Part shown: piece after piece, positions 34,430-59,954 of the stretch
Layout: every line of letters begins with the position of its first letter
How positions within the stretch are numbered: the stretch's first letter is position 1
NCBI GenBank assembly: GCA_965287045.1
Contig: OZ336878.1
Span: 104,966,001 to 105,030,000 of the forward strand
Length of the DNA: 64,000 bases
From: Carcharhinus amblyrhynchos
Taxonomy: Eukaryota
Direction of reading: 5' to 3'
Translations under genes and position numbers: made by a program
Notes under the pieces: model-generated
Databases searched by the model: none
Told to the model about the DNA's origin: nothing
What the model saw: only the letters and a program-made list of their open reading frames with translations

Positions 34430-35597
34430 GCCTCACAAAAGGTTGCTTCAGGAGGTTAGCTTGCATGGAGTTGGGGGTAAGGTGTTAGCGTGGATAGATG
34501 ATTGGTTGTCTAATAGGAGGCAGAGAGTTGGTATCAATGGGTGCTATTCTGATTGGCGGTCGGTTACTAGTGGAGTGCCGCAGGGATCGATTCTGGGGCC
34601 TCAGCTATTTACCATTTATATAGATGATCTGGAGGAAGGGGTTGAGTGTAGGGTGACGAAATTTGCTGGTGACACGAAGATGAGTGGAAAAGCAAATTGC
34701 GCGGAGGGTGTGGAAAGTCTACAGAGGGATCTGGATATGCTGAGCGAGTGGGCGAGGATCTGACAAAGGGAGTACAATGTCAGCAAGTGTGAGGTTATCC
34801 ACATTGGCAGAAATAATAGTCGGAGGGATTCCTATTTAAAGGGCGAAAAGTTGCAGCATGCTACGGTGCTGAGGGACCTGGGGGTCCTTGTGCATGAGTC
34901 GCAAAAACCCAGTCTGCAGGTGCAGAAGGTGATCAAGAAGGCGAATGGGATGCTGGCCTTTATAGCGAGAGGGATAGAATATAAAAGCAGGGAGGTCTTG
35001 CTGCAACTGTACAGGCCACTGGTGAGGCCACAGCTGGAGTACTGTTTGCAGTTTTGGTCGCCACACTTGTGCAAGTATATTTTGGCCTTGGAGGGAGTGC
35101 AGAGGACGTTAACTAGGCTGATACTGGAGATGAGAGGGTTGGACTATGAAGAGAGACTAAATAGACGGTGTCTGTACTCGTTGGAGTTTAGAAGGATGAG
35201 GGGGCATCTTATAGAGACGTATAAGATAATGAAAGGGATGGATAGGGTAGAGATAGAGAGATTATTTCCGCTTAGAAAGGATAGCAGTACTAGAGGGCAC
35301 TGCCTCAAGATAAGGTGGGGGGGGGCAGCTTAGCTCGGAGTTGAGGAGGAACTTTTTCACTCAAAGGGTGGTGAATCTCTGGAATTCTTTGCCCGTTGAA
35401 GTGGTGGAGGCTACCTCGCTGAATATATTTAAGTCACGGTTAGATAGGTTTTTGACAGACAAGGGAATTAAAGGTTATGGGGAGAGCGCGGAAAAGTGGA
35501 ACTGATCCACTTCGCATCAGCCATGATCTTATTGAATGGCGGGGCAGGCTCGAGGGTCTAGATGGCCTACTCCTGTTCCTATTTCTTATGTTCTTAC
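34430..35597 (+). mobile_element. Young 5'-truncated CR1 LINE inserted in the first array unit
   Basis: RT motifs SGVPQGSILGPQLFTIYIDDL and KFAGDTK, then RPQLEYCLQFWSP, and a (ttcttatg)n tail. Array-unit sequence resumes on both sides. Confidence 0.95.
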
Positions 35598-36289
35598 GTG
35601 ATGTGATTAATTGACTTATTCTTGTGTAACTTGAACTTATTCCTGGCCGCTCTCGCTCTGCTCAGACAGACACGTGAAATTATTAGTCCTTTCAAAGCTG
35701 GAAGCGCATTACAGATCCATAGAGATTTCAAATGACGGGCCATTGATTTTGATCTTATTAAAAGACAAATCGTAGTCTTGGAAAGAAGCACCCTGCATGC
35801 TCAAACTACCATCACTTCAGCGTTTATTTCAGATTTCCAGAATCTGCAATATTTTGATTTTAAAATTCTCTTGGTTGTTTTCGAGTATTGTTGGAGCTAC
35901 CCATGACAACCATAGCGCTTGCACAGCTGTTATAGTTCAGTATATGGTCAAGAAGAGCCCCAAGAATGTAATAACGGTGATTTCAGCCATTGTATTGTCA
36001 CTGAATCTCAATGGATGGCGACTATGCGTTTTCTCTTACTTCCCAATACTGTGGCGCGAATGGTACTTTTCAATTGCCAGCCAAAGAAAGCAAACTCAAG
36101 AAAGCGTGAATTTCACTTGGTCATGTTGAAAACCTTGATAATCGTGGACGATTACCACCCTTTATATAGAACATGAGGACTGACTCATTCAACAATGCAA
36201 TATCGTATTATGATAATAATTGTTAGAGCAGCACTTTGGAGCGATTACAGCCAATTAGCACAAACATTTGTAGTTGTTGTGTAGGGTCA

Positions 36290-36740
36290 GTCATCTCTGC
36301 ACGAATCCGTGAGGGTAGTTTTCTAGCCCCAACAATCTTCAGCTGTATCATGAATATCCTTCCCTCCATCATAAAGTCAGATGTCGGGATGTTCTCCGAA
36401 GATTGTACGACGTTCAGCAAAATTGGTGACTTCTCAGATACTCAGTCTATTTCAAATGCAACAAGGTCTGAACAATATCCAAGCTTGTGCTGACAAGTGG
36501 AAAGGCACATTCGCGCCTCACATATTCCACCCTTTAACAATCACCACTGAAAGGCGCTCTAACCACAGCCCCCTGACATTCAATGGTATTTCCATCACTG
36601 ATTCCCCCACTGCCAACATCTTTAGGGTTACCATTAATTAGAAACTCAACTGGACTCACCACATAAACACAATGGCTATAAGAGCATGTTAGTGCTTGGA
36701 AATAGTGTGGCGAGTAACAGACCTCTCAACTCCACAAAAT
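36290..36740 (+). mobile_element. L2/Crack/CR1-group LINE RT fragment
   Basis: GSFLAPTIFSCIMNILPSIIKSDVGMFSEDCT and QQGLNNIQACADKW in ORFs 36236-36493 and 36381-36641. Confidence 0.85.
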
Positions 36741-39700
36741 GGCAGCTTGAGGCTATTCAGGCTCACTCCTTAGTAGTAGATTGTCGGTGGATGGTAGGTA
36801 CCATTTTGTGGAGATGCCAAATGGAACAAGAAGTGATTAACTTAGAAGCTTCCAAGACTCTAATCTGCTATTCTATCCACAGTATTTACAGTACTGGCAC
36901 TGTTCAGTTTCTAGTCAAGATCGACCCCAAAGTTTGTTTTTTACATAGTGGAGAATTCAGCAATTGTATTGCAACTTTGTTTCAATGGATGACGTTCTGC
37001 ATTTGGCTTCTTGGATTGATTTGCTGAACCATAATTCTGTGGCGAAATGCTGCTTGCCAATTGTCAGGTCAAACTAGGAAAATCTTTACTTTCGCTGATA
37101 AACTTGAAAATCTTGATCACCTCAGACAAATACACTACTTTGTTACAGGTTGTGACCACTCACTCATTGTATTTTGATTTGTTTTTGTTAGCAGGAATGG
37201 TCCAGCAAAACTATAATCATGAGAGTCAACTGAATTAAGCATTTGTAAATTGAACAGATAGATCAATTACACAGAATGACTGGATGCATCTTCTACAAGT
37301 CAATTGAAGCTAGCACCAAGAGCAATTGCAGTCAATACCACTGAAGACAAAAATTTACGAGTCGAGATAAGGGCAAAGTGCAACATATTTTTGTATTGAA
37401 GATGTCTTATTTAAAAATAACCTCCAAAATATTAAAGGTGATATTGAAGCACATTTTGTTTATTACAAAAGAGATGCACTCAAAGTTGACGTCTCCGTAT
37501 GTTACCTGATATTCTGTTCATCTCGTCTCGGTCTGTTCAAATGGAGAAGTCAAAGCTAATTAATCTTTCCAAACCTTGAAACATACGACTGAACCTTAGA
37601 ATGTTTCATTGACCTTAATCAACAAGTCGTTTTCTTTTCAGGAAGCCAATTTCCGCTCAAAATTCCAACACATCTTCTCTTAATTGAAAAAAGAATCTTT
37701 AAATTTAGTACCCTGCTTTCAGTGTTGCAAAATTAAATTATTGTGATGGCCAGCTAATGGAAAGTAATGATTTGAAATTGAAAAACGCTATTTATTTTCT
37801 GCCCACTGTATTTATAGAACTGACACTGTTAATTTCCTCGTCATGGTCGACCGGGTTGATTTTGATAAAAAAGCGTTCTGTGCCTTCATTGTCATTTAAT
37901 TTAATGGATACGTTTCGGCATTTGTTTGCTCGGATCAGTTTGCTGAAACACAATTCTTTGCCCCGAATGCGCATTGCCAAACGTCAGGTCAGACTAGGAA
38001 AATCAGGAAAACCTGAATTTGGGGTGATATGTTGATAATTTTAGTAGTCTGAAAAAATTACACCAATTTAGTGAAATGCCTGCCTACCATTCATTAAATG
38101 ATGCTGAATCCTTATATTCGCAGAAATGGTCTTGCATAACTATATAATAACTACAGCTAACTGAATCAAACATTTGTAAATTGAACCGAAAGATCAATTC
38201 TGCGATTCTGTGATTCTGTGAATTACGCCAAATCAATGGGAACAACATTCTAGTATTAAATGGAACCATGCGCCAATAAAAAGTTGAAGTCAATACCATT
38301 AAAGATGACGTTTTACGAGGCGGGATTCGACCAAAAAGTGCAGTATGTATCTGTTTTGTTAATGCTTTAGTTAATCAAACCCCCCAAACTGTTAGGTGTG
38401 GCATTGAGGCACAATTAGATTGTTGGAAGAAAATATGTTCAAAATAAAGTTACCTTCTTGGTATGTTACCTAATCGTATGTCCATCTTGTCTTGATCTGC
38501 TCAAATGAAGAAGTCAAGCTAATTAACCGATACGAATCTCGGAGAGTCCTACAGAACTATTGAAATTTCAAATGACCTGTAATTGATCTCGATTTCGTCT
38601 CAGCAAACCACTTTCCTGCTCAAACATCCATCGCTTCTGTTCTTGATTTAAAATTATACTAGCTGCGGGGTTTTGCTTTCAGTCTTGCCAAACTTAAATT
38701 GATGTAATGGGAAGGAAATGGGAATTAATGATTTCCATTTGAAGGATCACTTTTTATTTTTTGGACTCCCGTTTTGTTGTTAAATGACGGTAACAACAGA
38801 TTTGGAACAGCTTTTTGTAAAAAGAAGCGCCAACTTGCACTTTTTATACTCTCACATTAAAAGTTTTGGTTGCTGGCCAGACCAGAAATTAATGGTCATC
38901 AGAAGACAGAGCTGATCTGCATCCATGAAACCCTGCAGAGCATGCAGAGCTCGCATATTTTCAGTGGTACTGATAACCGTGTACAGTTAGCCTGATATAG
39001 TACAATTGATGGTTGCTGCCTCCCAGGTCTTGGGGGGACTTGTATTTGAAGGTTGCCGAGAAATTCCGTTTCCAGGTGACAGCAGTCATATGTTTGGTAT
39101 TTGTCTTTGGAGTTATTTTGATGAATTTCATCAGACGAATATTGTGAACAATGATGCAATGGCTTGTTTTCCATTGGATGGCTTTGACGATGTTGAGGTT
39201 TGTTGGAGTTATATATACCATGGCAGGTAGCGGCTATTCAATCATGCTACTTAAGTACATTTTTCGGATGGTGGAGAAATTTTGGGGAGGAATCGGATGA
39301 GACAAGAGAAATGATTAACGTGTCCCAGCCTTCAATCTGGCGCTCTCCAGTTTCTGGTCAAATTCGACCTCAAAAATTTTAAGAACGGTACATTCAGCGA
39401 TTGTTTTTCTAACTAATCGCAATTGATGAAGGTTATGTTTTATTCCTCTTGGAGCAGTTTTTTGCCTCGCAATTCTTTGCACGAATGCAGCTTGCCACTT
39501 GTCAGGCCAAACGAGGAAAGTCAAGAGAACTTGAGATTTCATTGAGCAACTTGAAAATATTGATAAAATAAGACACACACACATACCAACTTAGTGCGGT
39601 GTCGATTTACTTGCTAATTGGTTAAAGCAAAACCCTGCTACTAATGATAATGTTCGAGTATCACTATGTGATAATTACTGTCATCTGGATCAAGCATTTG

Positions 39701-42700
39701 CCAAATGAACAGATGGACCAATGACAAACAATGACTGAGGACATTAGTGTAAGTAAGTGAAAGCAAACGTCAATACGAATTGAAACCAATACCTCGAGAA
39801 GCGAAATTTTACGAGACGAAAGAAGATTAGATTGCAATTGGTATGAGTTTTCTTGTTGACTTAGTTGAGGAAAAACTCCAAAATATCAAGAGTGGCATTG
39901 AGTCAGATTGAGATTATTGGAAGAAGAGATACAGAAAGTTGACTTCTTGAAATGTTACTTAATCTTATGTCCTTCTTGTCTCGATCTGCCCAAATAGAAA
40001 AGTAAAGCAAATTAATCGTTCCAAAGATCGAACCGGCCCATAGCATTTCTCAGATTTCAAATGACAGCCATTGACCTTCATCAGTAATTCCCTTTTTCAG
40101 ATAGCGACTTTCCTGCTCAAAATACTATCACGTCCCCTCTTAATGCAATATTCCTTTATCCGCAGTCTTTTGATTTCAGGCTTATCAAAATTAAATTGCT
40201 GTAATGGAAATTAATGATATCTAATTGAAAAAAAAGTTATTGATTTTCTGGTCCTTCTTCGTTTTCTCTGTTAATAGCGGTAAACACAAGAGAGAAATCT
40301 CTCTTTTTCAAAGAAAAGGGTTTTCTTTATATTCAATCATGAAAAGTGATGGTTTTCAGCAGACATGTAATTAATGGTGTTCCCAAGGCTCAGGTGATCT
40401 ACATGCATGAAACCCTGCAGGCCATACAGAGTACGTAAACCCACACTGCTGCTGGTGAGTGTGCATAAGATTTTGATTAAACAAAAAATAATGTCACACC
40501 AATACATTCTAGTGTTGGGTGGCATTGTCATGGACTTGCTGGGGGTGAGGGACGAGTTGGGGGGGTAGTGGGGGAAGGGCGGGAGGACTTGCGTTTGCCA
40601 GTTCTCGAGGAATGCCTTTCCTACAGGTCAAGGGTCATGTAGTCGGATTCGCTATTGGAGTTCTTTTGATGGCTTCCAGCAAAATAAACTGTGCACATTG
40701 CTGCGACGGCGTGAAGTTGGCTTGAGTGCTGAGAGGGCAGTGCAATTGGCATTAGTTTTACTGTTCTGTTAAACCTCCACTCCAAATTAATAATAGTGGC
40801 TTTGAGTCAGATTGGGATTATTGCATGAAGAGAGGCGCGAAATAAATGCGTCTTGTTATGTTACCTGATCTTCTGTCCATTCTGTCTCGATCTGCTCAAA
40901 TGGAGAAAGAAAGCAAATTTATCTTTTCAAAGCTTGAGCCGTCCCCCACAACTCATTACATTTCAAATGACCTGTCATTGACCTTCATCTGTAATTCGCT
41001 TTCTTTTCAGGTAGCGTCTTTCCTTTTCAAACTTTCATCACTTCTCCTCCGAATTTAAATTTGCCTTATGTCAATATTTTGATTTCACTCTTGCCGAGTG
41101 AAGTTGATGTACTGGGAAGCTAATGACAATTAATGATTTCCAATTGAAAGAACATTATTGATTAACTGACCCTCCTCCATTTTGATAGTTAAAAGGGTTA
41201 ACGTTAAATTACGAATCCCACTTTTTATCAACAAAGCATAACTTGAACGCTCTTTATAATCATTCTGAGAAGTAATATTTGCCAGCTCGAGCAAAATTAA
41301 TGCTCATTAGCAGCTAGAGGTGATCTGCTTCCATGAAATCATGCGCACCATGCACTGCCCGAAAACTCAGATTGTTTTTTGTATGCATGTCATTTGAAAT
41401 GGCACAGCAAAATTGATGGTTCCGCAATATATTTAAATGTCCCTTGGTTTTGGCCTGGTCCAGGGAGGGGGACGGCCTGAAAGGATGTCAAGGAATTCAG
41501 TTTCAGCAGGCCAGCTTTCATGTGTTTGTAAATTGCTATTGGAATTGTTGTGGTGAATTTCAGCAGAAGAATCTTGTGCACAATAATGCAACGGTGTGAG
41601 TTTGGCTTGTGTCATTGACGGGGAAGGTGGGGCATTTCGTAATTGTTGACTGACGGAGTGCGGATTAACGTCACGTCGTCTGCGTTATATTGGTTGGCGT
41701 TGTGGTTGTTCTGTTTTTTTTGGAGCTATATCTATGAAGACAGGTCAAAGCTATTCAAGCTTACTCCTGAATTGTACGTTACAGACGGTGGGCAACATTT
41801 TGGGTAGTTTCCAAATACGACAAGAGGTGATTAATTCGTTACCGGCTTCCAAAACTCTAATCTGCTATTTTAGCCGCATTATTATTTAAAAAGGTACTAT
41901 TCAATTTCGAGTCAAAGTCGAACGCAAAGATTTTTATAAAAGAGGATTCAGTGACTGCACTGGCATTTAGTCTCATTGGATGACTTTTTATGTATTTGTC
42001 TTCTTGGACCAGTTTGCTGCGTCACAATGCTATGGCCCGAATGCTACTTTTCCATTGGCAGATAAAATCGGTAAAATCATGAGAACTCGAAGTTTGGAGG
42101 ATAAACTTGAAAATATTGTTAATTGCAGACAGATAACAAATTTAGTAGAATGTGTGGCTACTCGCTCATTGTATAATCCAATTCCTATTTTTTAGCTGAA
42201 AATGTCCATCCTTACTCGATGAGAATTACAACCAAATTAATCAAGCATTTGCACATTGAACAGATAGATCAATTTCACACAATGACTGTGTGGACATCAT
42301 TCTCAAAAATAATGAACGAAGGCTAAGAACAATTGAAGTCAATATAACTAAAGACGAAACTTTACAAAACGAGATATGACCATAGTACAATAGGTGCTCA
42401 TTTTGCTGACGACTTAGTTATGCAAATCCTCTAAAATATTAAGAGTGGTACTGAGGAACACTTAAGTTGTTCGAGAAAGAGACGTATGGAAAGTTGACTT
42501 CTTGAAATGTCACCTGATCTTATGTCTATCATGTCTCGATCTGCTCAATTGGAGAAGTAAAGCTATGTAACCGATCCAACATCGAAGCATACCACTGTAC
42601 TGATGATATTTCGCATGAGGTGTCATTGACCTTCATCAGTAACTCACTTTATTTTCAAGAAGCCAAATTCCTGCTCGCGATTCAATCAATTTTCCCATTA

Positions 42701-45700
42701 GTTTAAAATTCCACTATTTGCTTTCAGACTTGCCAAAAGAGAATTGATGTAATGGGAAGCTAATCGGAATTAATGATTTCCAATTGAAAGAACGCTGTTT
42801 GTTTACTGCCCTCCTCCATTATGTCGGATGATAGCCCTAACACTGAATTAGAAATTCGTCTTATTGTAACAAAAGACCAGACAATAATGCTCGTCAGAAG
42901 GTGGAGATGATCTTCATCCATGAAGCCCTGCAGACCATGCAATGTACCTATATCGGCAGTGCTGATGCGAAGTGTGTACCATCATTTTCGTACAGCATCC
43001 TTGATGGCACGGCAATATGCTTTAATAGCGGGTGATGTTGTCTAAGCCTTAAATGGCTGGATCTTGAAGGTTGTCAAGGATTCACATTTCCATACGAAAG
43101 TGGTCATGTGATTCTGATTTGTTATTAGAGTTGTTTTGAATAGGAGCAGAAAGATTTTATGAACATAGATGTAGCGTGCGCTATTACCTAATGTGATTAC
43201 GGGGCAATGTATGTCCGTTTTATATTGCTGGCTGACGGAGTGAGGTTGAACATCAAGCCGTTTGTTTTCTACTGGTTGAAGTTCTTGACTATTGTAGCTA
43301 TATCTATCATGGCAGCTCGAGGCTATTCAATCATACTTATTAATTGTAGGTTATAGGTAGTGGACGGATTTTGTAGAGGAGTCGAATCGGGTAAGAGTTA
43401 GCCCGTGTCACGTTTCCTCAACCTTAAATCTGCTGTTCGAGCCATAGGATTCATGGAGCTGGCATTGTTCAGTTTCTCGTCAAGATCGACGCAAGGATGT
43501 TGATTGCAGTTAGGGGGTGGTGCGGGGGCGGGGGGTGGGGGGGGGGGGGTGTTGAATTTAACGATTTTATTGCCAATTTATCTCAATGGAAGAAGGATGT
43601 GCATTTCTCCCCTTGGAACAGTTTATTGCCACAGAATTCTCTGGCCCGAATTCATGTTCACTTTTCAGGCCAGACGGGAAAATCAGCATAATTTGATTTT
43701 CCGTTGAGCAGCTTGAAGACGTTGATAATCGCAGACAACACAGTACTTTAGTGGAGTGTGTGACCACTCGCTAATGGAATCATGCACAATCCTTTGATTC
43801 ACGATAATGGGCGAGCAGCACGTGTGATAATTACAGTCATCTGAAATAACTATTGCCGAAAAGATCACCAGCGGCACTCAATTACTGAGAACAGTCTTCT
43901 GCAAGTAAATGGAAGCGCGTTTCAAGAACATTGAAGTCAATCCACCAAAGATAAAATTTTACGAGATTTTTAAAGGAAGGTAAGAGTGCAAGTGACATTA
44001 GATTTACTGTTGGCTCAGTTAAGCAACCCTCCAAAATATTCAGAGTGGCATTGACTCACATCTAGTTTTTTGGAAGAAGAGAGTTCCGAAAATTTGACTT
44101 CTTGCTATGTTACCTGAACTCATGCCCATGTTGTCCAAATCAGCTCCTCTTGAGAAGTAAAGCAAATTAGTCGCTACAAAGCTCGACCGTCCCATAGAGC
44201 TCGTCAGAGTTCAAATGACACCTCATTGATTGACATTCATCAGTAATTTGCTTTCATTTCAGAAAGCCACATTCTTCTCAAGCATTATTCGCTCCTCCTC
44301 TTAAGTTTACATTACTTTTTCTGTATTATTTTGATTCTATTCTTGCTGAAATTGAAGTGATGCGAAGCTAATAGGAATTACTGATTTCCGATTGAAGGAA
44401 AGGTATTCATTCCTGGCCCTTCCCCGTTTTGGTGGTTAGTCACGTTCACAATAAATTAAGCAACCTTTTTTTATCAAGAAAACACCATCAAGAAAACCCT
44501 TTATATTCATGCATGCGAAGTCATGGTTGGCGGATGGAGTAGAAATGAATGTTCATTAGAATGTGGATGTGATCGGCATTCATAAAAAGCTGCAGACCAT
44601 GCAGTGTCCAAGATTCCAGCTTGTTCTTTGTATGCGTGTGTCTTGATTTTGGCACAGCGGAATCAATGACTCAGCAATATATTTTACGGCCACTTGGTTT
44701 TGGCATGATCTGGGAAGGCAGTAAGGGAGGCGGAGCCGGGAGGAGGGGAGGGGGGAAGAGGGAAGGGTGGAGATGAGAGGGGGGATTGGAGGAGGGGTGT
44801 TATTTGAAGGGTATCCAATAATTTAATATCTACAGGTTAGCGTTTGTCTGTTTGGAAGTTGCTGATGCAATTGTTTTAATGAATTGCAGCAAGGCGATTC
44901 TTGTGCGTGGTGGCGCAACTGTGTGAGTTTGGTTTGTCCCGTTTGCGGGGAAGGTGGGATATTTCCCGATTGTTTTCCGACGGAATGCTGATCAACGTCA
45001 AGCCGGCTGCAATCTATTGGTTGGCGGTGTAGTTGTTCTGTGTTGTTGGAACTATATCTGTAAATGGGAGGTCGAGGTGTTTCAAGATTACTCTTGGATT
45101 CTACATTGTGGAAGATGAACAAAATTTTAGGGACTTGCCCGATGGCACTAAACGAGATTACCTCTTTACATGCGTTCTTGAATGTAATCCGCTATTTTAA
45201 TACTTATATAACAGGCACTGTTCTGTTAGTCAAGTTCGAACACAAAGATATTTTGTAACGGATCGTTCAACGATTGTATTGCCATTTAATCACGATGGAT
45301 GGCCTTTACGTGATTTGTGGTCTTGGATGAGTTTACAGCATAGCAATTCTGTGCCCCCAGTGCTACTTGCCAACTGTCAGATCAAATCGGTAGAATCAGG
45401 AGAACATGAATTTCGGTGGATAAGTTTGAAAATCGTATCAATTGCAGACAGAAATACCAATTTAGCAGATTGAATGACTATTAGCTCGTTTGATATTGCA
45501 AAATCATATTATTTGAAGAAATGGTCAGCCATAACTGTACACTAATTACAGTCAAATCCATCAAGTATTTGTCAATTGAACAGATGGGTCATTCACACCT
45601 AATGACTGAGAGCGGTATTCTCCAAGTAAGTCGAATCAAGCGTCAACGAAACTTGAAATCACGACCTCTAAAGAGACAATCTTACGAGACGAGATAAGGC

Positions 45701-48009
45701 CAAAAGATTTAAGTGCAATTGGTATTATGTTTCCTGTTCAATAGTTAAGCAATAGCTCCAAAATTTTAGGAGTTTATTTGAGTCAGATTTCAATTACTGG
45801 AAGAAGAGTGATATGGCAAGTTGACTTCTTGAAATGATACCTGATCTTATGCCCATCTTGTATCGATCTGTCGAAATCGAGAAGTAAAACAAATTTATCG
45901 TTCCAAACCCGTGCTGTCCCACATTACTACTCAGTTTTCAAATAACGGGGCATTGACATCCAGCAGTATTTCGCTTTAATTTCAGGTAGGACTTTCCTAC
46001 TTAAAATTTCAAGACAACTCATCTTATCTTTCTTTTTTATGCGCAGTATTTCAAATTTAATCTTGCCAAAATGACTCTGATATAATGGGGAGCTAATAGG
46101 AATTAATCATATCCAATTGAAAGAACGTGATTTGTCTTCTACCCCTCTTCCCCGTTGTTGGTTAATAGCAGTCACATCAACATAAGAATGCCTCCTTTTG
46201 ATAACAATAAACAACAATTTGTTATTTCTTTATATCCTCCTTGAAAACTAACGTTTGTCGGTAGAGCTGAAGATAATGATCATCAGAGGTTGGAGGAGGT
46301 TTGCATTCCATGAATTCCTACAGAGCATGTAGAGTACGTATACCCCAGTGTTGTTGGTAAGCGTGTATTAAGTTTTGAAAGTTTTGAAACAGCAATTTTG
46401 ATGACAGGGCCATATATTTTAATACCGGATGGTGCTGTAAAGAGCTCTGTGTGTGTGGACGGGAATGGGGGTTGGGGAGAGAAGAGGGGTTTCTACTTGA
46501 AGGTTGTCGTGTAGTTGCGATTCTATAGATCAACAGTCATGTAGTTGGAATTTGCTATTGCATTGTTTCGATTAATACAAACAAAATAATCTTGTACACA
46601 CCGATGCAACGGTGCGTGTTTGACTTGTGGGGATGAGGGGTTAGATGGGGCCGTTAAGTAATATTGCCTGACAAGGAGCAGTTGAACATCAAGCGGTGTG
46701 CTTTCTATAGGATTGCATTAACATGAATTAACTTGTTGAGTGATGTCCATGAGCTATTTCCATGATGGCTGTTCTAGCTTTGCAGTCGTGCTACTTAATT
46801 ATTTGTTGCAGATAGTGGGCAGAATGATGGGGAGAAGTTGATGGGACCAGAGGTGATTAACTCATTAAATGCTTATTAGCTTCTAATCTGCTATCCTCAA
46901 TACAGTATTGCTGCAGCTGGCAATATTTGGTTCCTATTCAATATAGATGCCAGCAATTTTCATGAAGGTCAATTCAGCGGTTGTATTGCAAATTAATCTC
47001 AATGAATGAATATTGTTTCTTTCTCCGTTTGGAACAGTTTGTTGCCTCACAGTTCTCTGGCACAAATAATAATTTTCACTTGTCAGGCCAAACTGGGGTT
47101 ATCAGGAGAACTTGTGTTTCCTTTGAACAGCTTCAAATATTCATAATCTAATAAAAAATCACCACTGAAGTACAGTGTCTAACTGGATAATGCAAATCAT
47201 ATTATTAGCTACAATGGTCGAGCATTACACTGTGATAATTGCATCCAGTTGAATCAAACATTTGCCAAAAGAACAGATGGACCAACGAGACACAGTGACT
47301 GACTACATTATTGTCTAAATGAATTGAAGCAAACTTTAAGAATAACTGAAATCTATACCACTTAATACCAAATTTTTATGAGACGAGTCAAGACCAGAGT
47401 GCTATTAGTGTTAGTTTTACTGTTGCCTTTTATAAGCCATCCCTCGACATTAGTAAGAATGACTGGGTCAGGTTGACATTTATGGAAGAAGAGGGGTACG
47501 AAAAGCTGGCTTTGTGTTATGTCACCTGATCTTCTGTCCATCTTGCCTCGATCTGCTGAAATAGAGAATTAATCGTTGCAAAACTTAAGCCGTCCCGCAG
47601 AATATACCAAATGTCAAATGACGTGTTACTTGAAATCTTCAGTAATTTGCTTTCTTTCCAGGCAACCCCTTTCCTCTTCAAACTTTCATCGCTTCTCTTA
47701 TTTTAAATGTCCTTAATCGGCAGTATCTTGATACAAGCCTTGCCAAAATGAAATTGATTTGATGCGAAGCTAATAAGAATTATTGAATTTCAATTGAAAG
47801 AAAGCTATTTATATCCTGAATCTCCGTTTTGGTGGTTTATAACATTAACATTAAATTAGGAATCCCTCGCTTTCAACAACAAAACACCAATTTTTGCGCT
47901 CCTTATATTCATCGACGAGAAGTAGTGTTTGCAAGCTGGAGCAGTATTAATGCTCATTAGGAGGTGGAGGTGATTTGCATCCATGAAAATCTGCAGAACA
48001 CACACCACC

Positions 48010-50550
48010 CGAAAATGTATTACTTCGCATTTGTCTAAATTATAAACCACCTGCCATTCGTCAGCCCAGTGGCCCAATTGATAAACTTCCCATTACAATC
48101 CTAGGTATTCTTCTTCACTGTCCACTATGAAATCAACCTTGGTGTCATCTGCAAACTTACTTACTCGCCTTCTAAAGTCACATCCAAAACATTAAAATAA
48201 ATTGCAACTAACAGTGGACCCAGCACCAGTCTCTGAGGAACGCCGCTGGTCACAGACCTTGAGTTTGAAAAAGAACAACCCTCTACAACCATACTCAAAG
48301 AACAAAACAAAGAACAAAGAACAAAAACAGCCCGGGAAACAGGCCCTTCGGCCCAACGAGCCCACGCCGCCATTTTAACGTTACCAGTTCCCGCCCCCCC
48401 CCCCCCACCCCCTCGACCCATGACCCTTATCTATTGTTTTATGGCAATCCACATTGAGTGAAACTAATTTAGGGACAATTTATTACTTCCAATCAGCCTA
48501 CTAGCACATCTTTGGGGTGTGGGAGGAAACCGGAGCTCCCGGAGAAAACCCACGCAAGCACGGGGAGAATGAGCACATCCCCACAGACACGAGACCAAAT
48601 CCACGTGTCTGCACAGCAAACAGTGATCGTCACTGAGCTGTCGGGTTGCCCAGCATCTGGTCCAGTTTAAGCGCACACTAACGACATGAAGCACTAGGCC
48701 AACCCCGAACATTCAAGAGCCGCCCTTGTACGTCCCTTCGCGTGGATTCCCCTCGTTGGACAACAAGGCGGACCGACTTAAAACCTGTGAATTAAAAGGG
48801 GGAAAAAAACATTATTATCATACCATATTCATTTACATGACCAGGGACGCCCCAATGCTAATGAACCTTATTTAAAACAATCTCCTATATCCACCCATCT
48901 CCAACCCGCTCATCTGCCTGTCTAAGTTACTCTCAAACAACTCTAGCGTGCTTGGCTCCACCACCTTACTTGGCAGAGCATTCCATACCCCCACTACCCT
49001 CTGTGTGAAAAAACTTCCCTCTAATATCTTTGTTATACCTCTCCCCTCTCACCTTAAGCCCATGGCCCCTCGTACTGTTTGCCTCTAACATAGGAAATAG
49101 CTTACCTCTGTTTACTCTATCTATACCCCTCATGTATCCTTCTGTCATCAAACACATTTTGTTTCAGTGTGCTACCTCACCCTGGATCCCGGGAAATTTA
49201 ATGTTGTGCAGCAATCTACCACATGCTACCTTGTTAATCGCCTTGCTAAATTCCACAAACACAACATCAACTGCACTGACCTCATCTACCTTCCTGGTTA
49301 CCCCTTCCAAAAACTCAATGAAACTTGTGAGACATGATTTCCCACTGACAAAGCCATGCTAACTTTACTTACTCAGTCCTTGTATCTCAAAAAAAATACT
49401 GCAGATCCTGTCTCTCAGAATAACTTCTAAGAAATTACGCACTACAGATGTGAGGCTCATCCATCTGTAGTTCTCCAGCGTTTCCTTGCAGCCCTTTTTA
49501 AAGAAAGGCACCACATTTGCCACACTCCAATATTCAGGCAAATCACCTGTGGCAGTCGATAATTCACATATCTCTGCTAGAGGACCTGCAATTTCATCCC
49601 TCACATCCCAGAATGTCCTGGAATACACTTCATCAAGTCCCGGGGATTTATCAATGTTGATGAGCTTTAAAACGTCCAGCATCTCCTTGTATGTTACATG
49701 TACAGTCTTCAAAACATTTTCATCCAAGTTCCCCAGCATTCACGTTTTCAACAACATTAAATACTTCTGAGAAATATTCATTTAGGATGTTACCCATATC
49801 TTGTGGATCCGCAGAAAGAAGACCCTATTGATCCTTAAGACGCCCTATTCTCTCCATAGATACTCTTTTGCAATTAATATATTTGTAGAAGCTCATTGGA
49901 TTTTCCTTTGCCTTATCTGCGGAAGCAATCTCGTGTCCCCTCTTCCCTCTGCTGATTAATCACTTAACGCTACTCCTAAAACTATTATTCTTTTCAAAGG
50001 ATCCGCTTGATCCCAACTACTTACACGTGTCTTGAGCCTTCTTATTTTTCTTGATCAGGGCCTCAATAGCCCAAGTCATCTAAGGTTCCCTACTGTTACC
50101 AGCCTTGTCCTTCACTTGAAGAAAAGTGTGCTCACCCTAAACCCTATATAACACACTTTTGAATGCATCCAATACAAGAAGTCCCTTTGCCTACCAAAAG
50201 ACCCATCCGATAAACATTTGAATGCTCCTGCCTGATGTTATTTGAACTGGCTTGACCCCAATTTAGAATTTTAACTTCGCCCACCCCTACCATTCTCAAT
50301 AGCTATCTTAAAACAAATGTCATGTTGTTCAGTTGTCCCAAAGTAATCCCACACTTACACTTCTGCAATCTGCCCTTTCTCATTTCCCCAGGAGGGCGTC
50401 AGGTTTTACCCCTTCTCCAGCCGTTCCATCCGCATCTTGAATGAAGAATTCATCCTGAATATATTGAACAAATTTCGCTCCATCCATGCCTGCAACATTA
50501 CGGCTATCCCAGTCAATGTTGTGAAAGTTAAAATTTCCTGCTATTACCCT
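48010..50550 (-). mobile_element. Degraded CR1 LINE within the array, containing a nested element at 48297-49137
   Basis: DKSPGLDEVY, ANVVPFFKKG..NYR.MSLTSVV, HGFVSGKSCLT and SGVPQRLVLGPLL motifs; the host sequence is contiguous across the nested insert. Confidence 0.9.
48297..49137 (-). mobile_element. Nested CR1-type element: ORF2 end plus long 3' UTR containing a V-SINE domain and (ttctttg)-type tail
   Basis: MRGIDRVNRGKLFP..TRGHGLKVRG (49137-48970), ~280 nt of unassigned sequence, V domain (~48470-48590), tail gggccgaagggcctgtttcc...ttctttgttctttg. Confidence 0.7.
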
Positions 50551-53500
50551 ATTTTGTTTTTTTGCTTGGAGCTATTGAGTTTCTAGTCAAGGTTGACGTC
50601 AAGGATTTTTACATCAGAGGATTCAGCGACTGCATCACCATTTAATCTTGATCGATGACTGCTGCGTATTTGTCTTATTGAATCAGATTGCGGCATCAAA
50701 ATTTTGTGACCAGAATGCAACTTGCGAATTGTCAGGTCACATTCACATAATCGGGAGAACATGAATTTCGGTGGATAAGCTTGAAAATTCTGTTAATCAC
50801 AGAGCAATAGAGCAAATTAGTAGAGTGTGTGAACACTCATTCATGGAATAATGCAAATTATTCGCATTAGCGAAAATGTTCGAGCCAAACTGTGTAATAA
50901 TTATAGTCAACAGAAACAAGTGTTTGGAAATTGCACATATACATCAACTACGTACAATGACGGGGGAATCTCATTCTCCAAGTTATGTACAACAAGGAGC
51001 AAGGGGAATTGAAGTCAACAAAATGTACGATGATATTTTGCGAAACGAGATATGACCAGACGGCGTTCTGCTGATGACTCAGTTAAGCAAATTCTGCAAA
51101 ATATTAATAATGCCATTCAGGTGCACTTAGGTTATCGAAGAAGAGTTGCACGAGAAGTAGACTTCTTGATATGTTACCTGATCTTATGTCCATCATGTCC
51201 CAATCTGCTTAAATGGAGAAGAAAGCTATTTATCCGATCGAAAATCGAAGCATCCTGCAGAAAATATGATATTTCAAATGATGTATCACTGGCCTTCATC
51301 AGTAACTCTTTCTCTCTCTTTTCAGGGAGCCTCTTTTCCGCTCAATGCAGTGTTCGTATATCCACAGTGCTGATGGTAAGTATGCACTATCATTTTGATA
51401 CAACAATAATATTTTAATATTGGCTAGTGTTGCCTCGAGGTTGAATGGTGGAACTTGTAGGTTTTTGAGGATTTACGTCGCTACGTGCAAGCGGCTATGT
51501 GTTTGTAATTTGCTAGTGGAGTTGTTTTGTTGAATTGCAGCAGAAGGATTTTCTGAACAGAGATGCAAAGGTGTGAGTGTGGCTTGCGGGTTTAAGGGGC
51601 TATGACACCTTTCTGTATTGTTGGCTGACGCAGTGCGGCTGAACATCAAAACGCTTGCTTTCTTTTGAATGCCGTTGAAGTTCTTGAGTGTTGTTGGCGC
51701 TAAATCTTTCATGGCAGGTCGCGGCTATTCAATCATATTTCTAAATTGTATGTTGTAAATCGTGGACAGGTTCTTAGGGAGGACTCGGATGGGACAAGTG
51801 TAGCTTAGCTCGTTACACGCTTCCGATCTTTATTCTGGTTTTCTCGTCAGGGGATTAATATTGATGGCACTGTTCAGTTTCAAGTAAAGTTTGGCTCAAT
51901 GATGTTGACACCGGTGGATTTAGTGATTGTATTCGCAATTAATCTCAATGATTGGAGATTATGTTTTCTCCTCTTGGGACAGGTTATTGCCTCACAATTC
52001 TCTGGCCCGAATGTTACATGGCACTTATCAGGCCAAACTGGGAAAATCTGGTGATCTTGAGTTTCCGTTGACCATCTTTAAAATGTTGACACTCTCAGAT
52101 ACATACAGCACATTTGCAGAGTGTTTGACCACTCACTAATTGACGAATGCAACATCCATTAATTTCGCAATAACTGTCGAGCATCACTGTGCGATAAGTA
52201 CAATCATCTGAATCAAATATTGTCCAACTGATCAAATGGACCAATGGCACACAATAACTGCGGGCATTATTCCGCAAATTTATGGAAGCACTTGCCAAGA
52301 ATAATTGAAGTCAATGCCAGTAAAGTCGATATTTTATGACAGTAGATAAGACGAGAATGCTATTCGTATTAGGTTTACTTTTGCCGTAGTTAAGCTATCC
52401 CTCCAAAATATTACAATTGACATGCAGGCACATTTAGATTTTTGGAAGAAGAGTGGTACGAAAACTTGACTTTTTCATATGTCACCTAGTCTCCTGTCCA
52501 AGTTGTCTCGATCTGCTCAAATAGAAAAGTAAAGCAAATTAATCATTTCAAAGCTCGAGCCGTCCCTCAGAACTTATCCGGTTTCAAATGGCGTGACATT
52601 GACCTTTATCAGTAATTCGTTTTCTTTTCAAATAGCCTCATTCTTCCTCAAATATCATTCGCTTCTCCTCTCAATTTAAATTACGTTATCTTCAGTACTT
52701 TCATTTCATTATCGCCAAAATGAAATTGATGTGAATGGAAGCTAAACGGAATTCATTATTTTCAATTGGAAGTGCACTCTGTTTGCCTTGTTGTCCACCG
52801 TTAATGTGGAAGTTCCTCTTTTCTAACAACAACACGCCAACGTCTACGCTTTTCATATTCTCCCACGAGAAGTACTGGTTGCCGGAGCAGAAATCAGTGT
52901 TATTACAATGTGAAGGTCGTCGGGACCACCGAAAGCCTACAGACCGTGCAGTGTCCGAAATCCCAGATTGCTTTTTGTATGCCTGCTCATTGATTTTGGC
53001 AAGAAAAAATGATGACAGAACAATATATTTTAATGTTGCTTGGTTTTGGCATGGTCTTGGGATGGCATGGGAAGGGAGGAGTGGGGGTTGGGGGCAGGAG
53101 TAGCGAGGGGGTGGGGGGGGGAGTGGGCTTCAAAAATGTCCAGGAATTCAGTTTCCACAGGTCAGGTTCCTTTGTTTGGACATTGCTAATGGAGTTGTTT
53201 TGGTGAATTTCAGCAGATGAATCCTTTGCATAACGCTGGAACCTTGTGAGTTTGGTGTGCGTTGGCGGGGAAGGTGGGGCATTTCACGATTATTGATTGA
53301 CGCAGGGCGAACCAACATCAAGCAGTCTGCATTCTATTGGTTGTCAGGAGCTGGACCCTTTAAGTAAAGTTGGCTGAAGGTGTGCAGTTGAACATCAAGC
53401 CGTTTGTTTTCGACTGGATGGCGCTGAAATTGTTGAGTGTTGTTAGATCTATATCCATGACGCATGGTCAAGGTTTGCAATCATACACTTTAATTTTACA

Positions 53501-54311
53501 TTGTAGGCAGTGGACAAGATTTTTAGGAGGGGCCGGCTCGGACACGAGCTGGTTAATTCTGCGAATACATGCTTCATAGCCTCTAAGCTGCGGGTCTAGA
53601 CACAGTATGGATATAACTGACCAGGTTCACTCTCTATTCGCTCTCTTTGTCAGGTCAAAACGGGAAAATCAGGAGAACTTGCGTTTCCGTTGAGCAGCTT
53701 GAAAATGTTGATAACCTAAGACAAATGCACCACTTTAGCACAATGCCTAGCCACTCGTGAATTGAATAACGCAAATCATATTATTGGTGTTAATGGTTGA
53801 GAATTACAGTATGGTAATTGCATCCATCTGAATTAAATCTTTGCTAAAAGAACAGATGGACCAATGAGATACAATGGCTGACGACGTTATTCTGCAAATA
53901 AATTGAAGTAAACGTCAAACATAATTGCAGTCAATACCACTAAGAATGGAATGATACGAGACGCTGTAACACCATTGTGCAATTGGTATTAGTTTGTCTA
54001 TTGCCTGAATTAGGTCAATCTTAAAACTAATAAGAGTAACATTGACTCAGATTCAGATTATTGGAAGATGAGAGATACAAAAAATGACTTTTTGTTATAT
54101 TACCTGATCTTCTGTCCATCTTGTCTCGATCTGCTCAAATGGAGAAGTAAAGCAAATCGATCGTCCCAAAGCTCAAACCGTCCCAAATAACATCAGGTTT
54201 GAAATGACGTGTCATTGACTTTCATCAATGATTCGCTTTCTTTCAGATAGCCTATTTCCTTCTTAAAATTTCATCACTTCTCATCTTATTTAAAGTTCCT
54301 TTATCTGAAAA

Positions 54312-54867
54312 ATCTGTGTGCAGTTTTGGGCGCCGTACTTACGCAAGGATATTTTGGCCCTGGAGGGAGTGCAAAGGAGGTTTACTAGGCTGATACCGGA
54401 GTTGAGGGGATTGAGCTATGAGGAGAGGCTGAATAAACTAGGCTTGTACTCGTTAGAGTTTAGAAGAATGAGGGGAGATCTCATTGAGACGTATAAGATG
54501 ATGAATGGGATGGATAGGATAGAGGTGGAGAGACTCTTCCCGCTCAAAAAAGACAGTAGGACTAGGGGGCACAGCCTCAAGATAAAGGGGAGGCGGTTTA
54601 GAACGGAGTTGAGGAGGAACTTCTTCACTCAAAGGGTGGTGAATCTCTGGAATTCTCTGCCCGTTGAAGTGGTGGAGGCTGCCTCGCTAAATATTTTTAA
54701 GAAGCGGGTTGATGTTTTCTTGATAAGAGAGGGGATTAAGGGTTATGGGGAGAGGGCGGGAAAGTGGAACTGAGCCACGACAGATCAGCCATGATCTTAT
54801 TGAATGGCGGGGCAGGCTCGAAGGGCTAGATGGCCTACTCCTGCTCCTATTTCTTATGTTCTTATGT
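54312..54867 (+). mobile_element. Young 5'-truncated CR1 LINE (same family as 34430-35597)
   Basis: Uninterrupted 151-aa ORF2 C-terminus (54318-54773) and (ttcttatg)n tail; aaaaat on both flanks may be a TSD. Confidence 0.95.
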
Positions 54868-57800
54868 AAAAATGGTGATATCCGTCGTGCCAAAGTGGAA
54901 TTAATGTGAATTTGTGATTTCCAACTGAAAGAATGTTATTTATTTTCTGGCCTTCTTCCTTTTCTTGGTTTATAGTATTAACATTAAACTAGAGTCCTTC
55001 CTTTGTCTTAAAAAAAATCAGCTTGAATATAAAGCACGCTTTATATTGATCCACGAGACGTAGAGTTTGCTACTTCAAGCAGAAATCAGCACTCATTAGA
55101 AGGCGGACATGCCGTGTCGGAAAACCCACGGTTGTTGTTTTTATGCGTGTTCTTTGATTCTGGCACAGGAAAACTGACGCCTCCGCAATATATTTAACGT
55201 CGCTTGGTTTCGGCGTAGTGTATGGCCGGGACAGGACCCGTGAAAGGTGTCGAGAAATTCAGTTTCTACAGGTCAGTATTCATGTGTTTGTAAATTTCGA
55301 CTGGAATTGTCTCGATGAATTCCAGCAGACGAATCTTGTGCACAATGAGGCACCGGATTAAGTTTGGCATGTGTCCTTGGGGGGAAGGTGAGCCATTTCA
55401 CGGTTGTTGCCTGACGGCGTGCTGATGAACATCAAGCAATCTGCATTGCATTGGATGACGTTATGGTTATTCAGTGTGTTTGGAGCTGTATCTGTCAGGG
55501 CAGGTCGAGGCATTTCAAGCTTACCCCTGAAATGCACATTGCAGTTGGACGACTGCATTTTGCGGACTTTCGGATTGAGCAAGAAATGATCAACTCGTCA
55601 TACCCTTCCAAGACTCTAATCTGCTACTTTAGCCACAGTACGTATATAAAAGGCACTGCACAGCTTCTGGTCAAGGGCGACAGCAAACATTTTTGTAACT
55701 TGGAATTCAGTCATTTAATCTCAATTTATGACAGTTATGTGGTTATGTATATTCATTCTTGGAGCAGTGTGCGGCATCAAAATTCTGTGGCCGAAATGCT
55801 TCTTGCCAATTGTCAAGTCAAACAGGGAAAATGAAGAGAACATGCATTTCGATGGAGAAGCTTGAAAATCTTGTTAATCGCAGAAAAGAAAACACCAATT
55901 TAGTAGAGTGTGTGACCACTCGGTTATTGAGTAATGTATATTCCTATTGTTAAGAGAAATGATCGAGCATAACTATGTGATGATTACAGTCAAGTAAGTC
56001 AAGCATTTGAAAATTGAACAGATCGACCAATTACACGCTGTTACTGGGGACATCATTCATCAAGGAAATGGAAGCAAGTACCCAGAACAATTGAAGTGAA
56101 AGAACTAAATATGTAATTTTACGAGAGGAGATATGACTAAGAACAGGTACTCATCTTGGTGATGACATAGTTTAGTAAATCCTCCGAATTATTAAGAGTG
56201 ACATTGAGGAAAGAGTGGATTATTCGAAGAAGCTGACTTCTAGCAGTGTTACCTGATCTTATGTCCATCATGTTTCGTTCTGTTCAAGTGGAGAAAACAA
56301 TCTATTTAATCGATCGAAATGTCGTTGCTCTCCAAAGAACTGATGAGATTTCAAATGACGTGTCATTAAAATTCATCAGTAACTCGTTTTCTTTTCAGGA
56401 AGTCAATTTCCTGCTCAAAGTTCCATCAATTCTCCTCTTAATTATAAACTACTTTATCTACAGTGTTTTGCTCTCAGTTTTAACGAAGGACAATTGACGT
56501 GACGAGACGCTGACCGGAATTAATGATTTCCAATTGAAAAAAAGGTTATTTATTTCCTTGACCTCCTCGATTGTTCCCGATAGTACCCATAATGCCAAAT
56601 TAGAGATTGTTCTTTGCGTGAAAAATAACATTTTTCGTTCTTTATAACCATTCATGAAAAATAGTGGAATCCGCCAAGACCAGAAATTAATGCTCATCAG
56701 CAGGCGGAAGTGATCTGCATCCATGAAGCCCTGCAGATCATGGAGTGTACGTAGGCACGCTGGGCTAATGGTTAGCATGTACTATCGTGTTGTTCCAACA
56801 AAATTGATGGCACAGCAATGCATTTTAGTGGCGGGCGTTGTCTACGGCTGGAATGGCGGGAACTTGTAGGTTGTCGAGGACTTACGTTTCCACACATCAG
56901 CAGTCATGGTTTTGCAATTTGCTATTCAAGATGATTTGATGAATTGAAACAGCATGACTTTGTGAACGTAGATGCAACTGTGTGTGTGGCTTGTGTGGTT
57001 AAGGGCCCGTGCGGGCTCTTTCTGTATTGGCAGAGTGCGGCTGAGCATTGACCTGTTTGCTTTCTATCGGATGGCGTTGAAGATCTTGAGTGTTGTGGAA
57101 GCCAGGTCCGTCATGGCAGGTCGCGGCTAATCAATCATAGCTGCCATTGGTAGGCTGTAGATTTTGGACGGGATTTTGGGGAGGAGTCGGATGGGGTGAG
57201 GTTGATGAGCTCGTTACACGCTTCGTAGCCTCTAATCTGATGTTCTTGGCAGGGGATTCATGTTGATGGCTCTGTTCAGATGCTAGTAAAGATCGACCCA
57301 AGAACATTGATAATGGTGGATTTAGGATGAAGTTCATATTTTTCCTGCTCTTTGAGCAATTTGTTGTCTCATAATTCTCTCACCCGAATGTGGCATGCTA
57401 CTTGTCAGGCTTAACCCGAAAAATGAGGTGAACTTGCGTTTCGGTTGAGCAGCTTGAAAATGTAATAATCTGAGACAAGTGCAATAACTAGAATGTGTCA
57501 ACACCCTCTAATTGCATACTGCAAAATCGTTGAATTCGTGATAAATGTCGAGCATCGTTGTGTGATAATTACAATCATCTGAAGCAAACATTGGTTGAAC
57601 AGATGGAGCAGCGACATTCAATGACTGAGGACGAAATTCTGCAGAAAAATGGAAGCACGTGACAAGAATAATTGAAGTCAATAACACTGAACAAGAAATT
57701 GTAAGAGGCGAGATAATGCCAGAGTGCAATTGATGTTATGTTTACTATTCCCTTAGTTACACAACCACTCCAAAATATTGAGTGCCCTTGAGGCACATTT

Positions 57801-59954
57801 AGATAGTTGGACGAAGAAAACTACGAAAAAAAAACCTCTTCTCGATACGTTACCTGATCCTCTATCCATGTTGTCTCGATCTGCTCAATTGGTGAAGGAA
57901 AGCAATTTAATCGATCTCAAGAACAAAGCCTCCCACAGAACTGATCAGATTTCAGATGAGGTTTCATTGAACTTCATCAGTAATCCGCTTTATATTCAGA
58001 TAGCCACTTCTATTCTCAAGCATGATTCGCTTTTCCAATTCATTTCAAATTATTTTATATGCAGTACTTTGATTTCATTGCTTGCCAAAATGCAATTGAT
58101 GTGATGAGAAGCTAATGGAAGTTTATGATTTCAATTTGAAAGAACTCTATTATTTTGGCCTACTTCCGTTTTGGCGTTTAATGGCGTTTTCACTAAATTA
58201 GGAATCCTTCTTTTCTAACAACAACAAAAAACACTAGATTGTACAATTTTGGTAATTATCCACGAGAAGCAGTCGTTGACAGCTAGAACAGATAATGTTC
58301 ATCAGACGTAGAGGTGATCTGCATCTAAGAAAATGCTGCGTCCATGCAATGCCTGCACATTCCAATTGCTGCCTGCGTCTGTGCTTTTCGTTTTGGCACA
58401 ACAAACTTAATGGCACGGTAACATATGTTAAGATCGCTTGTTTTCGGCGTGCAGTGTGGAGAGGGAGACTTCAAGGATTTCGAGGAATTCAGTTTCTACC
58501 TGCCAGCTTTCTTGTGTTTGTTAATTTCTATTAAAGTTGTTTCGATGACTTTCAGCAGACAGATCGTGTGCACGATGGTACAACTGTATGAGTTTCGCTT
58601 GTGTGGTTGGCGGGGAAGGAGAGGCATTTCACGGTTGTTGACTGACGGAGTTCGGATGAACATCAAGCCATCTGCATTCCGTTGGTTGGTGTTGTAATTG
58701 TTCAGTGCGTTGGAGCTATTTCTATTATGGTAATTCTAAGATATTCAAGTTTACTCGTGAATTGCACATTATTGACGGTAAACATCATTTGGGAGAGTTG
58801 CAGGATGGAACACGAAAAAATTATTAACTCGTTACCCGATTGCTAGACTTTAGTCCGTTATTTTTTGACCACAGTACTTATAAAGCAGGCATCCTTCAGT
58901 TTCCAGTCAACGGTGGATTCACCGACTGTATTGCCATTTAATTTCAATGGAAAACTGTTATGTAATTGTCTTCTTGGATTAGTTCGCTGCATCACAATTG
59001 TGTGGCCTGAACGCTACTTGCCAATTGTCAGTTCAAATGAGGAAAATCAGGAGAATATTACTTTCCGTGGATAAGATTGAACATATTGTTCATTGTCGAT
59101 CAATAAAGTCGCTCATTGAATAATGCAACTGTCTATTATTAGCAAAATTGGTCGAGAATAACCCTGCAATGTGCACAGTCAAATGAATCGTTTTGCAAGT
59201 TGAACAGGTGTATCAATTCCCCACAATGACTGGAGACTTCCATTTTCCAATCTAATGGAAGCAAGCGCCAAAAGCAATTCAACTTAGAACAACAACATAA
59301 GACATTTGATGAAACGAGATGTGACCAGGGTGCAATAGGTATTCGTTTTGCTGACGACTTAGTGAAACAAACACTCAAAAATATTAAGAGTGCTATTGAG
59401 GCGTTCTTAGATTAATCGATGAAGAGAGGTACGGAAATTTGATTTCTGGATATGTTACCTGATATTATGTCCACCCTGTCTCGACCTGCTCAAATTGATA
59501 AATAAATCTATTTAATCGAATCAATGCTCGAAGCTATCAAAAAAACGGATAAGATTTCAAATGAAGTTTCATTAATCTTCATCAGTCCCTAGCTTACTTT
59601 TCAGGAGCCAAATTCCTGCTCAAAATTCAATCAATTCTTCTCTACGTATAATATTCCATTATCTTCAGTATTTTTCTTCCGGTCTTGCTGAAATGAATTT
59701 GATGAGATGGGAAGCTAATGAGAATTAATGATTACCAATTGAAAGAACGCTATTTATTTACTGCACCTCCTCTATTTTGTCGGATGGTAGCCGTAACACT
59801 AAATCATAAATTCCCTTTACTTTAAAAAAAACGCATGTTCGTTATTTTTATTCATTAATATAAAATAGTTTTAACCAGCTAGAACTGAAAACAAAGCTCA
59901 TCAGATGGCCGAGATGATCTGCATCCACGAAGGCCTGATAACCACGCATGAACG

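Follow-up and report, generated by a model that had tools for sequence, protein, structure and literature searches.

The minus strand of a 64,000-nucleotide (nt) window of the Carcharhinus amblyrhynchos genome (C9:104,966,001-105,030,000) carries fifteen 27-nt segments, spaced at a median of 1,611 nt (range, 906 to 3,652), which make up the window's share of a larger tandem array. In these segments selection has retained the splice sites, the length, and the open reading frame, but not the residues encoded. With moderate confidence, we read them as part of a spliced micro-exon array that would act as a skippable spacer in the gene for a coiled-coil rod, itself encoded by micro-exons. Feature coordinates are those of the window unless prefixed by C9 or given in Mb.

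Constraint on the putative array exons

All 15 segments described in the first-pass annotation were found at the minus-strand positions it gave, each 27 nt long, and their translations matched its peptides. None carries an indel; the phase-1 frame is free of stops in every segment, and both other frames contain stops. A GT donor follows all 15, and an AG acceptor precedes 14, the copy at 44114 carrying CTG instead. A census with profiles built from the flanks alone found that every unit in the window holds its 27-mer and no unit lacks one, so the 15 are not a selected subset. The segments have the properties of symmetric cassette micro-exons, with a length that is a multiple of three, AG and GT boundaries, and the same phase on both sides; 27 nt is the upper size limit of a micro-exon. 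Each exon stops one base into a codon and has a length divisible by three, so any subset of exons keeps the frame. The array features, in transcript order and all on the minus strand, are as follows.

34227-59900, minus strand: 3' third of the tandem intron-plus-exon array (unit of ~1.6 kb), which continues to ~158,700 outside the window
59459-59485, minus strand: array micro-exon of 27 nt in phase 1; in transcript order, copy 33 of 47
57854-57880, minus strand: array micro-exon
56253-56279, minus strand: array micro-exon
54104-54130, minus strand: array micro-exon
52486-52512, minus strand: array micro-exon
51178-51204, minus strand: array micro-exon
47526-47552, minus strand: array micro-exon
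45841-45867, minus strand: array micro-exon
44114-44140, minus strand: array copy with its main AG lost; in-frame AGs lie 3 and 6 nt upstream; use uncertain
42514-42540, minus strand: array micro-exon
40865-40891, minus strand: array micro-exon
39959-39985, minus strand: array micro-exon, final base A, weaker donor
38470-38496, minus strand: array micro-exon
37506-37532, minus strand: array micro-exon
35631-35657, minus strand: last and most diverged array copy, with a weak donor; an insertion splits its downstream flank

The alignment of units that the first-pass annotation had proposed as a check was carried out, and the exon, AG, and GT proved better kept and less indel-prone than the flanks. 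Exon identity to the consensus was 0.854, compared with a flank mean of 0.761, and only 1 of 371 overlapping flank windows reached the exon value. Copies with an indel numbered 0 for the exon and averaged 4.2 per flank window of equal length, none of the 371 windows being free of indels. The exon GT was retained in 15 of 15 copies, compared with 0.13 to 0.73 at 22 other consensus GTs; for the exon AG the figure was 0.93, compared with 0.40 to 0.93 at other consensus AGs. Simulation at the flank mutation rates, which treats the copies as independent (a treatment roughly supported by the star-like tree of the units), gave 4.5 stops expected and 0 observed (P = 0.0056), 8.7 AGs expected and 14 observed (P = 0.0035), and 8.4 GTs expected and 15 observed (P = 0.00015). 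The three codon positions are equally conserved in the array exons, which fits constraint on splicing signals.

Two supporting arguments in the first-pass annotation did not hold. Its codon counts were correct (CGA kept in 12 of 15 segments, TGA in none), but CpG is not hypermutable in the flanks, where CpG cytosines are kept at 0.74 and other cytosines at 0.69, and the retention of CGA as a hypermutable codon therefore carries no weight. The AG upstream of copy 44114, taken as compensation for the lost acceptor, is simply the ancestral GAG of a GAGCAG motif, and both AGs are present in 10 of the 15 copies.

The earlier conclusion that an exon was expanded by multiplying whole intron-plus-exon units stands, but it missed both the extent of the array, which is three times larger and partly decayed, and the megabase-scale micro-exon/B30.2 cluster around it. 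A DNA search returned 36 matches, confined to the interval 105.00-105.12 Mb of C9. A profile search found 47 copies from 35,631 to 158,676 (123 kb), none on the plus strand, and 37 of the 47 are intact (AG, GT or GC, no stop); statistics on the 47 leave out about six decayed units and are thus biased upward. Copy 35631 has a weak donor and the lowest profile score among the 15 in the window. The star-like unit tree has tip branches of ~0.2 changes per site, which argues that the array is old and has not recently been homogenized, and a later three-unit block repeat lies within copies 15 to 25. Array introns are at least 348 nt long. The array is a local expansion, to some fifty copies, of one likely exon together with its intron, within a larger train of micro-exons.

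A second GAGCAG lies ~130 nt upstream of each exon; in two units it is followed by 27 nt and a GT (56384-56410 and 42644-42670), and in the others it is poorly kept. It is possibly a relic of an older internal duplication.

The surrounding micro-exon train and its homologues

The array lies within a one-strand train of phase-1 micro-exons of ~2.5 Mb, traced from ~106.49 to 103.96 Mb on C9 by sampling that read all but ~0.85 Mb of the span and was the sole coverage of 105.63-106.28 and 104.01-104.26 Mb. Across 1.06 Mb of unique DNA, the minus strand carried 50, 25, and 16 strong candidates of 27, 36, and 24 nt and the plus strand 2, 3, and 1; all strong candidates of 12 to 60 nt numbered 273 and 203. 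Phase 1 was open in 50 of 50 minus-strand candidates of 27 nt, 23 of 25 of 36 nt, and 16 of 16 of 24 nt, while the other two frames were open in 26 and 29, 4 and 5, and 8 and 7, respectively. The 664 kb around the window held 19 strong unique candidates of 27 nt, every one of them open in phase 1. A 27-nt and a 36-nt exon together encode three heptads.

Three copies of a start-like exon, marked by a D-E-Y-x-N motif, lie at C9:105,372,218, C9:104,757,561, and C9:104,359,558. Each has a phase-1 acceptor 14 nt before the ATG, those 14 nt are open, and the exon ends in phase 1. These three exons served to define modules B, C (the host of the array), D, and E. Their acidic Y-x-N motif is conserved and is present in a catshark model too; it resembles an SH2 docking site. 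Modules D and E are tandem paralogues with ~68% DNA identity. In module D the exons up to reference residue 890 are intact and conserved, and three of the last four are broken. In module C, rod exons corresponding to reference positions 957 to 996 are colinear with the catshark protein and lead up to the array, and rod-like exons resume after it, below 18,810. The candidates in the window after the array are as follows.

21610-21633, minus strand: weak, uncertain candidate 24-nt exon with a GC donor; by eye its peptide resembles a proline-containing stretch of the catshark model
18784-18810, minus strand: candidate rod exon, 27 nt and phase 1, following the array, with a strong acceptor and a weak donor
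17210-17245, minus strand: candidate 36-nt phase-1 rod exon
13440-13469, minus strand: candidate 30-nt phase-1 rod exon
11341-11367, minus strand: candidate 27-nt phase-1 exon
3702-3728, minus strand: candidate 27-nt phase-1 exon
2126-2155, minus strand: candidate 30-nt phase-1 rod exon

Three exons, of 27, 36, and 30 nt, apparently recur as a cassette several times right after the array (C9:104.89-104.985 Mb, which takes in 2126-18810 of the window and DNA downstream of it), and a second local array, of five similar 36-nt phase-1 exons, lies in module A (C9:106.425-106.443 Mb).

Homologous protein models link the train to a coiled-coil rod. The peptides of the micro-exons run in order through catshark models P0001 and P0194, in many cases with a single residue at the junction. 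Peptides from 95 of 828 minus-strand candidates matched P0001, compared with 6 of 589 from the plus strand. Colinear chaining on P0194 and P0001 scored 514 for module C, the host of the array, compared with 151 for its plus-strand control; the corresponding scores were 1074 and 62 for part of module D, 409 and 87 for part of module B, and 685 and 29 for part of module E. Gene predictors rarely find such small exons without RNA, and the catshark models are thus the strongest indirect evidence for splicing. Related models, with generic automatic names and split or partial, occur in Scyliorhinus canicula (XP_038671249, XP_038672306-10), S. torazame (XP_072329362-3), Narcine bancroftii (XP_069775384-90, XP_069775418-28), and Callorhinchus milii (XP_042191566-8), and homologues of this kind fit a cartilaginous-fish genome. 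The Scyliorhinus, Narcine, and Callorhinchus models share the same rod peptides and a divergent B30.2 domain, and several come as isoform series in micro-exon steps; the Narcine models XP_069775418-28 end without B30.2. RefSeq isoforms of the homologues, all predicted models, differ by cassettes of 9, 6, 8, 11, and 12 residues, and homologous models also include strings of short repeated cassettes together. No description of the family was found in listings of the open-access literature.

Two modules end in an intact SPRY exon. The terminal phase-1 exon at C9:103,955,183-691, which closes module E, scores as SPRY (PF00622, E = 1.4e-9); its product is 63% identical to catshark XP_038671249, and its best PDB matches are BTN3A1 (E = 4e-14) and TRIM21. 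The other, at 106.384 Mb, closes module A. The B30.2 domain of the cluster is divergent, scoring as SPRY and not as PRY. At the end of module D (C9:104,388,755-104,389,285) lies a dead B30.2 exon with stops and frameshifts, 69% identical to the live copy of module E. Since no SPRY exon was found after module C in contiguous DNA, this module either ends without B30.2, like Narcine XP_069775418-28, or splices onward.

Splicing onward would be consistent with modules B to E being one gene of ~2.4 Mb, spliced through the phase-1 start exons into an estimated >400 micro-exons, a proposal from sequence that we hold tentatively and regard as rather doubtful. Tandem rod-plus-B30.2 copies would have lost their internal B30.2 exons; the rod would run to several thousand residues and end in a single B30.2 domain, with a spacer of 0 to 330 residues tuned by skipping in the array. 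In its favor, module D keeps intact, conserved exons up to residue 890 although its SPRY and final exons are dead, and all three start-like exons have phase 1-1 boundaries and an open frame ahead of the ATG. If real, such a gene would exceed in exon number titin, for which PMC12198301 gives 363 exons. A single gene spanning the whole train is weakened by the second SPRY exon, the three start-like exons, and the dead SPRY after module D.

Other candidate ends of the train were set aside. A PRY exon at 103.527 Mb was rejected as a terminal exon, being part of a separate RING/B-box gene. Upstream, an immunoglobulin (Ig)-domain exon (Pfam I-set, E = 1.3e-8) and a transmembrane exon lie on the minus strand at C9:106.635-106.639 Mb, probably in a separate gene, presumably CD2/SLAM-like; as the N terminus of the train they are unsupported, with ~150 kb holding only scattered weak candidates in between. 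A hydrophobic open reading frame (ORF) at 106.498 Mb has neither a start codon nor exon structure.

The array peptide, its proposed role, and competing explanations

The 37 intact exons encode 332 residues of a 9-residue repeat rich in D, R, and S, 53% charged and with a net charge near zero. Hydrophobic power at a period of 3.5 is 0.82 in the array, i.e., no heptad signal, compared with 2.65 and 3.83 in the catshark rods. Given the lack of heptad periodicity, the array likely encodes a charged, skippable, non-coiled spacer or hinge in the rod, as judged from composition and periodicity. The linker role put forward in the first-pass annotation fits this composition; for the skipping it envisaged, the parallel lies in predicted models of homologous genes, where cassettes of 6 to 12 residues are skipped. 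Selection on the peptide found no support: the ratio of nonsynonymous to synonymous changes (pN/pS) in intact copies was 1.08 (resampled, 0.70 to 1.81), and 1.22, 0.87, and 1.20 in three parts of the array. Because the residues are unselected while splice sites, length, and frame are kept, the product that matters is likely length, and by analogy with the homologues the skipping of array exons likely sets spacer length in each transcript.

In the mechanism that we propose, one exon and its intron were copied about fifty times inside a cartilaginous-fish rod gene, the other tiny phase-1 exons of which are predicted to encode a long coiled coil. With all 37 intact copies included the rod would gain 332 residues, and skipping would tune the spacer in 9-residue steps from transcript to transcript. 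The chicken BG tail and the B30.2 head of butyrophilin and TRIM proteins suggest, by analogy, that the protein is likely to serve in the cytoplasm as a dimeric scaffold or sensor arm. If the locus is transcribed as predicted, it offers a vertebrate protein with a length adjustable in 9-residue steps through skipping in a 50-copy exon array, and a clean natural test of how exon arrays arise, are selected, and decay, with splice sites and frame under selection and residues not.

Several observations weigh against this reading. Ten of the 47 copies are broken, 9 of them outside the window; three of the broken copies hold stops, one of these with AG and GT (copy 90119) and one with AG and GC. About six further units have decayed, some with indels in the exon. 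Many copies are thus dispensable. The array peptide was found in none of 10 tested homologous proteins (best profile scores, ≤13.9, at the bottom of the self range), module C matches the catshark reference far more weakly than D or E, and the contiguous stretch from 104.566 to 105.63 Mb, which covers the end of B and all of C, yielded neither a SPRY exon nor a remnant of one. The evidence also has its own limits: splice scores follow simple rules of our own, the chain's positions within the array are arbitrary, the homologous isoforms are gene predictions of uncertain RNA support, and the comparison pN/pS of 0.40, from 20 paralogous rod-exon pairs of modules D and E, is biased low, protein similarity having been the basis for picking the pairs.

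The broken and decayed copies, and copy 90119 with its stop between intact splice sites, would also fit a relict array, whose exons were once included and selected and are now mostly or all skipped, or a module C that is a fading pseudogene; so would a pN/pS of ~1 and the lack of a B30.2 exon after module C. We consider this unlikely, as the 15 window copies are without stop or indel despite tip branches of ~0.2 changes per site, and the 19 strong unique 27-nt candidates around the window are all open in phase 1.

Less probable again is mutually exclusive choice, in which one or a few of ~40 variant exons would enter each transcript and generate diversity of sequence rather than of length. The copies do differ in peptide, pN/pS is not below 1, and tandem exon duplication is linked to exclusive splicing (PMC9013439). 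However, with introns of at least 348 nt and symmetric exons neither steric clash nor frameshift would force exclusion, and the homologous models include strings of short cassettes together.

We give slightly less credence still to a neutral by-product, with exons that are included, arose by unequal crossing-over, and are tolerated for their kept frame, the spacer itself having no function. The lack of residue-level selection, the other local duplications in the cluster, and the absence of the array from the tested homologues all suit this explanation, but under it loss of splice sites should be harmless, and AG and GT are kept beyond flank rates. A non-coding tandem repeat that contains AG-27-GT by chance is very improbable: the units of any repeat share motifs and one flank AG is also kept at 0.93, but the exon window beats nearly all flank windows, and its length, phase, and strand match those of the surrounding conserved exon train.

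Comparison with known systems and neighboring sequences

PMC5938342 and PMC4046983 describe the chicken BG tail as a coiled coil encoded by 13 to 36 exons of 21, sometimes 18 or 24, nt with split codons, with variable exon number and alternative splicing, and a BG-derived zipper protein whose soluble tail form acts on actin-myosin. The phase-1 train and the homologous rods resemble this tail in their many short split-codon exons with a heptad pattern, although the array itself lacks heptads. They differ in that the 21-nt unit is not dominant (6 candidates on the minus strand and 3 on the plus strand), with 27 and 36 nt prevailing; in that BG lacks B30.2, whereas modules A and E end in SPRY; and in scale, with hundreds of exons over megabases and a 50-copy non-heptad array. 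BG also carries an Ig-V domain and a transmembrane segment. Among the 150 of 1,794 V-set candidates scored, none lay in 103.9-106.6 Mb; Pfam found no Ig domain in homologous models P0001, P0194, and P0193; and no convincing signal or transmembrane exon was seen within ~140 kb upstream of the train.

Butyrophilins carry short heptad repeats followed by B30.2 (PMC4046983). Unlike the rod here, BTN3A1 and BTN2A1 have only a few heptads; the C-terminal B30.2 is present in modules A and E, dead in D, and was not found after B or C. All 87 candidates for the BTN-type IgC domain (PF22705) were scored, and the C9 matches lay only at 98.8 and 102.66 Mb, outside the train and not upstream of it. TRIM proteins such as TRIM21 and the TRIM39-like proteins share the combination of coiled coil and B30.2, and ordinary TRIM genes lie nearby on C9, but the rod here is built from micro-exons. 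RING and B-box were absent by Pfam from the tested homologous models and were not seen in exon scans near the 5' end of the train, no genome search having been aimed at these families. Enterophilins are mammalian, cytoplasmic proteins with an extended heptad rod (~30 heptads) and B30.2, without Ig. The BG comparison failed on exon size and B30.2 and the butyrophilin comparison on IgC, so we file the family under neither: its design works like a chicken BG or butyrophilin tail and belongs to neither. These micro-exon rod/B30.2 genes, which lie near TRIM and butyrophilin-type genes, form a cartilaginous-fish family that is poorly annotated and apparently undescribed; it takes the BG tail design an order of magnitude further, and one of its members may rank among the most exon-rich genes known.

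A search for longer homologues gave only a bony-fish protein of similar architecture, P0041 from Denticeps clupeoides (2,010 residues), which looks secreted and has a signal-peptide-like start, a long rod, and PRY/SPRY. Its match covers 16% of the query, and beyond B30.2 it is only a possible relative of the cartilaginous-fish family. Atlas clusters contain long SPRY proteins with many isoforms, which we note as a lead only.

Insertions resembling mobile elements interrupt the array. One, bounded by long terminal repeats (LTRs), occupies the end of the window.

59955-64000, continuing to 68855, no strand assigned: LTR-bounded insertion, foreign to the gene, in the intron that separates array copies 32 and 33; second LTR at 68206-68855, 89.6% identical

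This element of ~8.9 kb holds only short ORF pieces, none named by Pfam, and is presumably a broken endogenous retrovirus-type element. Insertions at ~34400-35560, 47900-50300, and 54300-54870 contain reverse-transcriptase-like ORF fragments, have very high read depth in run X1, and look to us like CR1-like long interspersed nuclear elements; of 15 ORF fragments taken from the insertions, none received a Pfam name. Run X1, whose kind is unrecorded, was discarded as splicing evidence: its contigs cover introns evenly, with ~2-3% difference, and its joints are uninformative on splicing, the 15 listed of 53 all lying in repeat insertions.

Six more B30.2 exons of the same divergent type lie on C16 at 60.4-66.4 Mb, one match having internal stops, and probably mark a second cluster of the micro-exon rod/B30.2 family. 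C9 is rich in immune-type genes, with large clusters of V-set, PRY, and BTN-type IgC exons at 83.8-85.6, 96-103.6, and 109-112.5 Mb; such clusters occur on C46, C53, C73, and C41 too.

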